In this document: positions 9,019 to 9,412 of the stretch, in pieces
How the letters are laid out: the number at the start of each line of letters is the position of its first letter
Numbering within the stretch: position 1 is the stretch's first letter
IMG/VR virus record: IMGVR_UViG_2606217104_000008
Length of the DNA stretch: 9,412 nucleotides
DNA from: a virus
Lineage: Duplodnaviria > Heunggongvirae > Uroviricota > Caudoviricetes
Strand: one strand, 5' to 3'
Notes under the pieces: generated by a model
What the model saw: the letters and a program-made list of their open reading frames with translations, nothing else
Told to the model about the DNA's origin: nothing
Database searches by the model: none
Translations under genes and position numbers: made by a program

Positions 9019-9144
9019 ATGTCATCGAAAAACCGGACCCGCAGAACCACAACCCGCAATATCCGTTTCCCCAATCACATGATTGAACAGATCAACATCG
9101 CCCTTGAGCATAAAGGGTCCGGTAACTTTGTAGTGGCACACTAA
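9019..9144 (+). pseudogene. Small Arg/Thr-rich protein gene (YlcI/YnfO, DUF3950-like, from memory) truncated by the IS insertion; the last five codons and the stop come from IS sequence
   Basis: ATG at 9019 preceded by AGAGGAAAG. Translation is [37 protein letters not shown] followed by VVAH and a stop read from the IS end (IS terminus TGTAGTGGCACAC begins at about 9129). The family assignment is recalled, not verified. Confidence 0.45.
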
Positions 9145-9412
9145 ATTTGGCCACCTGATGAAAGGTGATATTCTCACCACAACACAAAACAGGTGACTTA
9201 ATGAACAAGAAAACCAAACGAACCTTCACCCCTGAGTTCAGGCTGGAATGTGCACAGCTGATTGTTGATAAGGGCTACTCATATCGACAGGCCAGTGAAG
9301 CGATGAATGTCGGTTCAACCACGCTTGAGAGCTGGGTACGCCAGCTCAGGCGAGAGCGCCAGGGTATTACGCCCTCTGCCACACCCATTACTCCAGACCA
9401 GCAACGTATCCG
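9129..9412 (+). mobile_element. IS3-family insertion sequence (IS911-like), left end and start of orfA; the element continues past the right edge
   Basis: Terminus TGTAGTGGCACACTAAATTTGGCCACC starts with the TG typical of IS3-family ends. An IS911-like OrfA begins 70 nt inside it. GC content falls relative to the phage genes. Confidence 0.8.
9201..9412 (+). CDS. IS3-family transposase OrfA (helix-turn-helix, IS911 OrfA-like), 5' part only
   Basis: Translation [70 protein letters not shown] closely parallels IS911 OrfA as I recall it ([67 protein letters not shown]...). RBS AGGTGA lies 4 nt upstream of the ATG. Confidence 0.85.

Follow-up and report, generated by a model that had tools for sequence, protein, structure and literature searches.

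The gene that adjoins the packaging block of a prophage of Escherichia coli 3-267-03_S1_C3 on the side where relatives have their lysis genes is interrupted by an insertion sequence (IS). The junction lies exactly at the IS terminus, and the gene, a member of the ylcI/ynfO family (DUF3950), is truncated and has lost its most conserved segment. The event was probably a simple insertion in codon 37, read through by Q-antiterminated late transcription, and by itself it is unlikely to leave the prophage packaging-defective. The stretch of DNA analysed (the window) is the entire draft contig JNME01000090.1 (9,412 bp; assembly GCA_000700085.1). The IS, the target-gene family and the phage module each belong to a known kind; this is one strain-specific insertion of an ordinary kind, and only its exact site is particular to the strain.

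According to the proposed explanation, a 1,258-bp element of the IS3 family, IS911-like, would have transposed into codon 37 of a 66-codon gene. The host element would be a lambdoid prophage of the BP-4795/Lys8385Vzw type (Stx-phage-like, with an HK97-type head), in which ylcI would lie antisense in the late operon, between the lysis genes and the block formed by HNH, cos and terminase. Transposition would have followed the copy-out/paste-in route of the IS3 family, leaving a target duplication of 3-4 bp (CTT or ACTT) at the right end of the element, outside the contig. The features of the window are collected in Table 1.

Table 1. Features of the window (positions in contig JNME01000090.1)
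Feature	Position	Strand	Remarks
Left end of IS3-family, IS911-like element	9129..9412	+	First 284 of 1,258 bp
Left terminal inverted repeat (IRL)	9129..9154	+	TGTAGTGGCACACTAAATTTGGCCAC; compared with the right end of the complete copy in NZ_CP027766
IS orfA, 5' part (first 70 codons)	9201..9412	+	Pfam HTH_Tnp_1, 39.4 bits; same strand as ylcI, opposite to the late operon
Native 5' part of ylcI-family gene	9019..9128	+	Codons 1-36 and the first two bases of codon 37; homology to uninterrupted loci stops at 9128/9129
Truncated ylcI/ynfO-family (DUF3950) ORF	9019..9144	+	37 native codons, then VVAH (4 IS-derived codons) and a TAA stop (9142-9144) inside the IS; KDT55122.1
HNH endonuclease gene	8612..8977	-	Pfam HNH, 29.6 bits; relatives annotated HNH endonuclease
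Terminase small subunit gene (terS)	7760..8323	-	Pfam Terminase_2; 94% identical over the full length to phage Lys8385Vzw
Terminase large subunit gene (terL)	6102..7763	-	Pfam TerL_ATPase and TerL_nuclease; 98.6% identical over the full length to Lys8385Vzw
Prohead protease/major capsid fusion gene	4101-6038	-	Pfam Peptidase_S78 and Phage_capsid
Portal gene	2525-3889	-	In the minus-strand block
Head-tail connector, head-completion and gp10-like genes		-	

Window positions 8560-9412 were compared by megablast with 5,426 complete E. coli genomes. Thousands of prophages match the window from the HNH gene into a gene annotated 'YlcI/YnfO family protein'. Among the best matches listed, uninterrupted loci of this family are 96.8-99.3% identical to the window, and the closest matches stop at base 570 of the query, which is window base 9129. 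This same base is the outermost nucleotide of the IS, which starts with TGTAGTGG. Being a T, it fits the gene and the IS alike, and the unambiguous native ylcI sequence ends at 9128. The IS end lies 152 bp from the start codon of the HNH gene (8977), in agreement with the distance of about 150 bp given in the initial annotation, which had also described correctly the truncation of a small plus-strand ORF after a few IS-derived codons.

The comparison with uninterrupted prophages that had been suggested there recovered the intact gene and confirmed the insertion point. In the closest uninterrupted locus (NZ_CP062876, here L001) the plus-strand gene has 201 bp and encodes 66 aa, and the intact protein continues past the insertion point with SAWVIEACRRRLATDATHLRPASMTNNEK. 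The possibility that the ORF ends naturally at this point in some relative found no example: 33 of 33 homologues carry ...GNFSAWVIEACRR, and the shorter members of the ylcI cluster, marked 'partial', lie at the ends of contigs.

The junction between IS and ylcI is absent from the 5,426 complete E. coli genomes, in which no record covers at least 80% of the query, and it was not found in species-representative genome contigs or in phage records. The exact truncated protein (KDT55122.1, annotated 'hypothetical protein AB76_5131 [Escherichia coli 3-267-03_S1_C3]') is recorded only on the window's own contig.

What the truncation removes was judged from the family profiles and from an alignment of the 33 homologues. 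The block that is conserved at a level of at least 90% comprises 31 residues including SAWVIEACRR, and the tails past RRRL are hypervariable. The truncated ORF scores 29.8 bits against Pfam DUF3950 (PF13132; cut-off 25), covering profile positions 1-17 of 30; the intact 66-aa homologue scores 69 bits over 30 of 30 positions, and 35.2 bits against NCBIfam NF041551 (cut-off 30). The window ORF thus resembles YlcI (of DLP12) and YnfO (of Qin) in scoring above the DUF3950 cut-off and in adjoining HNH and terminase genes, as do family members in thousands of E. coli prophages, but it differs from them in keeping only 17 of the 30 positions. Because the highly conserved segment SAWVIEACRRRL is lost from the truncated ORF, loss of function of the YlcI-family protein is a reasonable inference, and the insertion has probably inactivated it.

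The assignment of the element to the IS3 family was made with the help of a complete copy in NZ_CP027766 (locus L002, 5338-6595; hereafter the sister copy). Window positions 9129-9412 are identical to it at 283 of 284 positions, the sole difference being at 9218, and further IS copies, in chromosomes and plasmids of other E. coli, match them with 100% identity (E = 3e-148). The sister copy has the TG...CA ends expected of the terminal repeats of the family, its right end reading ...CCACTACA. In a comparison of the left repeat with this right end (IRR), the first 8 bases agree at 8 of 8 positions and the whole repeat at about 20 of 26 (counted by hand). The full OrfA of the sister copy (103 aa) matches NCBIfam transpos_IS3 (E = 1.5e-13). 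Its orfB lies in the -1 frame relative to orfA and encodes an rve integrase core domain (95.1 bits), a slippery A6G motif (TTAAAAAAG) was read by eye, and PGAP labels the copy 'IS3 family transposase, programmed frameshift'. The two-ORF, frameshifting organization of the family is therefore seen in the sister copy, the window holding codons 1-70 of orfA only.

The likeness to IS911 is closest at the ends. The first ~75 bp of the element are highly similar to those of IS911A of E. coli K-12 (TGnAGTGG...AATTTGGCCACCTGA...GGTGATAT.CTCACC), the spacing from the end to the ATG of orfA is equal, and OrfA shares the helix-turn-helix domain (HTH). In contrast to the ends, the coding region is much more divergent from that of IS911A, and the element has three extra codons near the N-terminus of OrfA. 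A three-way alignment that included K-12 IS911A gave a mean column identity of 78%, a value to which two near-identical rows of the three contribute. These features suggest that the element is best called IS911-like, being neither IS911 itself nor an IS911 isoform; the identification in the initial annotation, an IS911-like member of the IS3 family starting at about 9129, is upheld in this sense by the terminal ~75 bp and by the HTH_Tnp_1 domain of OrfA.

The initial annotation took a simple insertion for granted. The contig stops 284 bp into the IS, before the lysis and Q side, so the window holds the left IS end only, and two other origins of the junction were weighed. In the first, the junction would be the edge of an IS-mediated deletion or inversion, with the 3' part of ylcI and the lysis and Q side absent or elsewhere and the packaging block left as an orphan remnant. 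Deletions next to an IS and recombination between its copies are familiar events, and this element is abundant, occurring at 4,664 places in 2,116 of the 5,426 E. coli genomes (median 2 and up to 16 places per genome); the contig, moreover, is only 9.4 kb long and the right IS end lies outside it. Set against this, a short-read contig that ends in a multi-copy IS is expected with or without a rearrangement, and transposition in the IS3 family usually ends in a simple insertion. The sister copy, in another strain, is itself a clean insertion, flanked by a 4-bp target duplication (GTTC). A rearrangement is accordingly rather improbable.

The second is an assembly artefact, a chimeric join of prophage DNA with an IS copy from elsewhere in the genome. 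The assembly is a short-read draft, and many public contigs break within ylcI, as the cluster members labelled 'partial' show. In the window, however, the switch from prophage to IS falls exactly at the terminal T of the inverted repeat, as transposition gives and unlike a repeat collapse, and the repeat shared at the join is this single T and nothing more. With the join at the exact IS terminus, a chimera was rejected as very improbable.

Simple insertion, the preferred origin, makes a definite prediction for the other side of the element. The 3' part of ylcI, TTCAGCGTGGGTTATTGAAGCC, would follow CCACTACA and CTT or ACTT, and would itself be succeeded by genes of the lysis side (a TonB-like gene, Rz and others); by analogy with the sister copy, the right junction would read CCACTACA + (A)CTT + TTCAGCGTGGG.... 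No ORF of at least 30 aa would span this predicted junction in three frames read by hand. IS911 is generally described as making 3-bp target duplications.

The same 1,258-bp IS is found inside the HNH gene of NZ_CP027766 and NZ_CP027552. The site corresponds to window position ~8902-8905, about 225 bp from the site in the window, and the orientation is the same; there, ylcI is intact and HNH is broken.

The minus strand of the window is occupied by packaging and head genes of the HK97 type. The block begins at the HNH gene, which is divergent from ylcI. All 11 packaging and head ORFs that were compared have matches in the Stx1 phage Lys8385Vzw, and ten of them are colinear and full-length with identities of 94-100%; the exception is a 353-aa ORF after the portal gene, which is mosaic or variable. 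The part of the prophage contained in the window bears no positive sign of a defect.

Some details of this block were recorded in passing. In the 645-aa product of the ORF at 4101-6038, Peptidase_S78 covers residues 48-152 and Phage_capsid residues 386-635, and the protease-capsid fusion gene keeps the same length in relatives. The 353-aa ORF (1467-2528, minus strand) overlaps the portal gene (2525-3889) by ATGA. Its counterparts have 245 aa in Lys8385Vzw and 461 aa in BP-4795; compared with Lys8385Vzw, its C-terminal part is 94% and its N-terminal third 68% identical, and its match to CBM_5_12 is weak and below the cut-off. In two complete genomes PGAP gives a single long 'frameshifted' portal gene at the portal position; judged by its length (~2.6 kb), this annotation would span the portal gene and the 353-aa ORF. 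Upstream of the portal gene, a 73-aa ORF (3835-4056, minus strand) without a family match is conserved in relatives as 'hypothetical protein'.

An HNH gene that immediately precedes terS and terL, together with a portal gene and a gene fusing protease and capsid, gives the module the look of HK97-type HNH, cos and terminase modules; the adjacency of HNH genes to cos and terminase is described in PMC3592412. The window's module differs in having a divergent ylcI upstream of HNH. A gap of 288 bp separates the terS start (8323) from the HNH stop (8612). It contains repeats at 8394-8522 and 8551-8610, of the type CCAGTTAACAT(T/G)T with a GTTAAC core, in 5-6 copies and in both orientations. A perfect 22-bp palindrome (GCCAGTTAACA/TGTTAACTGGC) lies within the array at 8501-8522, and G/C tracts (GGGGGGCCGG ... 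CCCCCCCCGGG) follow the repeats. From these motifs, the gap may be a candidate terS-binding or cos region of the HK97-type packaging module. A 41-aa ORF (8387-8512, minus strand) that overlies the repeats has no family match and is probably not a gene.

The position of the IS relative to late transcription was assessed from the gene order of relatives. In BP-4795 the order is Q, stx1AB, holin, lysozyme, Rz, DUF3950 (opposite strand), HNH, terS, terL, capsid, portal and tail genes, DUF3950 alone departing from the common strand. The layout of Lys8385Vzw and L001 agrees with this, ylcI being the sole antisense gene. In all three, Q/pR' is present upstream, with the lysis, packaging and head genes on one strand; the window shows the packaging and head part. 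Since Q, lysis, HNH, terminase and capsid genes share one strand in these relatives, late transcription must cross the ylcI position to reach HNH, and the proposal of the initial annotation that it arrives from the lysis side through the insertion point agrees with this order. In the window its course would include the IS, antisense to the transposase gene, which points away from HNH.

From the IS in this path, the initial annotation concluded that the genes beyond it are probably separated from their late promoter, unless transcription reads through or out of the IS. On this reading, through strong polarity of the IS, HNH, terminase and head genes would be uncoupled from pR' and the prophage would be packaging-defective (cryptic). 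IS insertions are classically polar for ordinary transcription, and the path from the lysis side through the IS is the sole one to HNH. A search of the minus strand for sigma-70-like promoters gave none, either within the IS or from there to HNH, so expression of HNH and terminase depends on read-through. This IS is absent from the phage records of the collection, which accordingly provided no natural example of a viable phage with it in the late operon. The IS629 copies of BP-4795 were considered as a counter-example and set aside as uninformative, since they are located beyond the tail-fibre genes.

Strong polarity is nevertheless opposed by what is known of Q and by the sequence of the element. 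RNA polymerase loaded with Q is termination-deficient, disregarding sites of pausing and termination for thousands of base pairs (PMC9388147). On its way to HNH in BP-4795, the late transcript has already passed ~8 kb that include accessory genes and the antisense ylcI. Within the IS, one weak terminator-like hairpin (6 bp stem) is present on the antisense strand, which is not above chance (1.4 expected in shuffled sequence), and the packaging and head genes, with their ORFs intact, show no other defect. Records of related phages that share this module vary in length between 48.3 and 65.0 kb, and the 1.26 kb added by the IS would fit within the sizes observed. Late transcription antiterminated by Q would for the most part pass the 1.26 kb of antisense IS, although some polarity could arise from the antisense IS RNA, which is not translated. 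We regard an uncoupling strong enough to abolish packaging as unlikely, and the step from an IS in the path to separated genes is not supported. Because of Q antitermination, the description of the prophage as cryptic and packaging-defective appears, on this analysis, more likely to be wrong than right.

For lambdoid prophages of E. coli, those of EHEC included, IS insertions in or next to the packaging module are well documented. In prophage Sp4 of strain Sakai, the nu1 gene is disrupted by an IS (PMC2669165). That case and the HNH-gene insertions in NZ_CP027766 and NZ_CP027552 differ from the window in that an essential packaging gene is broken there, whereas only an accessory antisense gene is broken here and the packaging ORFs are intact.

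The product of the interrupted gene was examined in the literature and by structure comparison. Among 39 papers retrieved for ylcI, ynfO and DUF3950, no title contains one of these names and the abstracts gave two spurious matches to word fragments; a sequence search of the PDB with YlcI returned nothing relevant. The AlphaFold model of YlcI has an extended N-terminus and helices at residues 19-32 and 34-55 (core pLDDT 73-85). The top Foldseek matches of this model in the PDB were mostly ParD-type and other antitoxins and TCP-domain proteins, with E values of 3-10, which are not significant, and probabilities of at most 0.21. We take the ParD-type antitoxins and TCP-domain proteins to be ribbon-helix-helix folds; for YlcI, such a fold may serve as a lead only.

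Many public draft contigs end inside ylcI, giving cluster members of 31-44 aa that bear the label 'partial' and are found on up to 111 contigs. The gene may mark the border at which shared prophage sequence gives way to variable sequence and assemblies of short reads stop.

Since different strains show two independent insertions ~225 bp apart and equally oriented, the ylcI-HNH region is possibly a preferred target of this IS. It is a long shot that this is so and that YlcI proteins are, in addition, ribbon-helix-helix DNA-binding regulators of the HNH-cos-terminase region. Were both true, IS insertion at this place would be a means of taming lambdoid prophages to which E. coli resorts repeatedly.

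The result is one further IS insertion in a prophage accessory gene and matters little beyond the annotation of the strain, whose draft contig ends at this place on account of the IS. The interrupted gene belongs to the YlcI/YnfO (DUF3950) family, whose very widespread members adjoin packaging genes. For lambdoid prophages, the insertion gives a caution: since late transcription under Q antitermination withstands termination, an IS within the late operon is not in itself evidence of a defective prophage.
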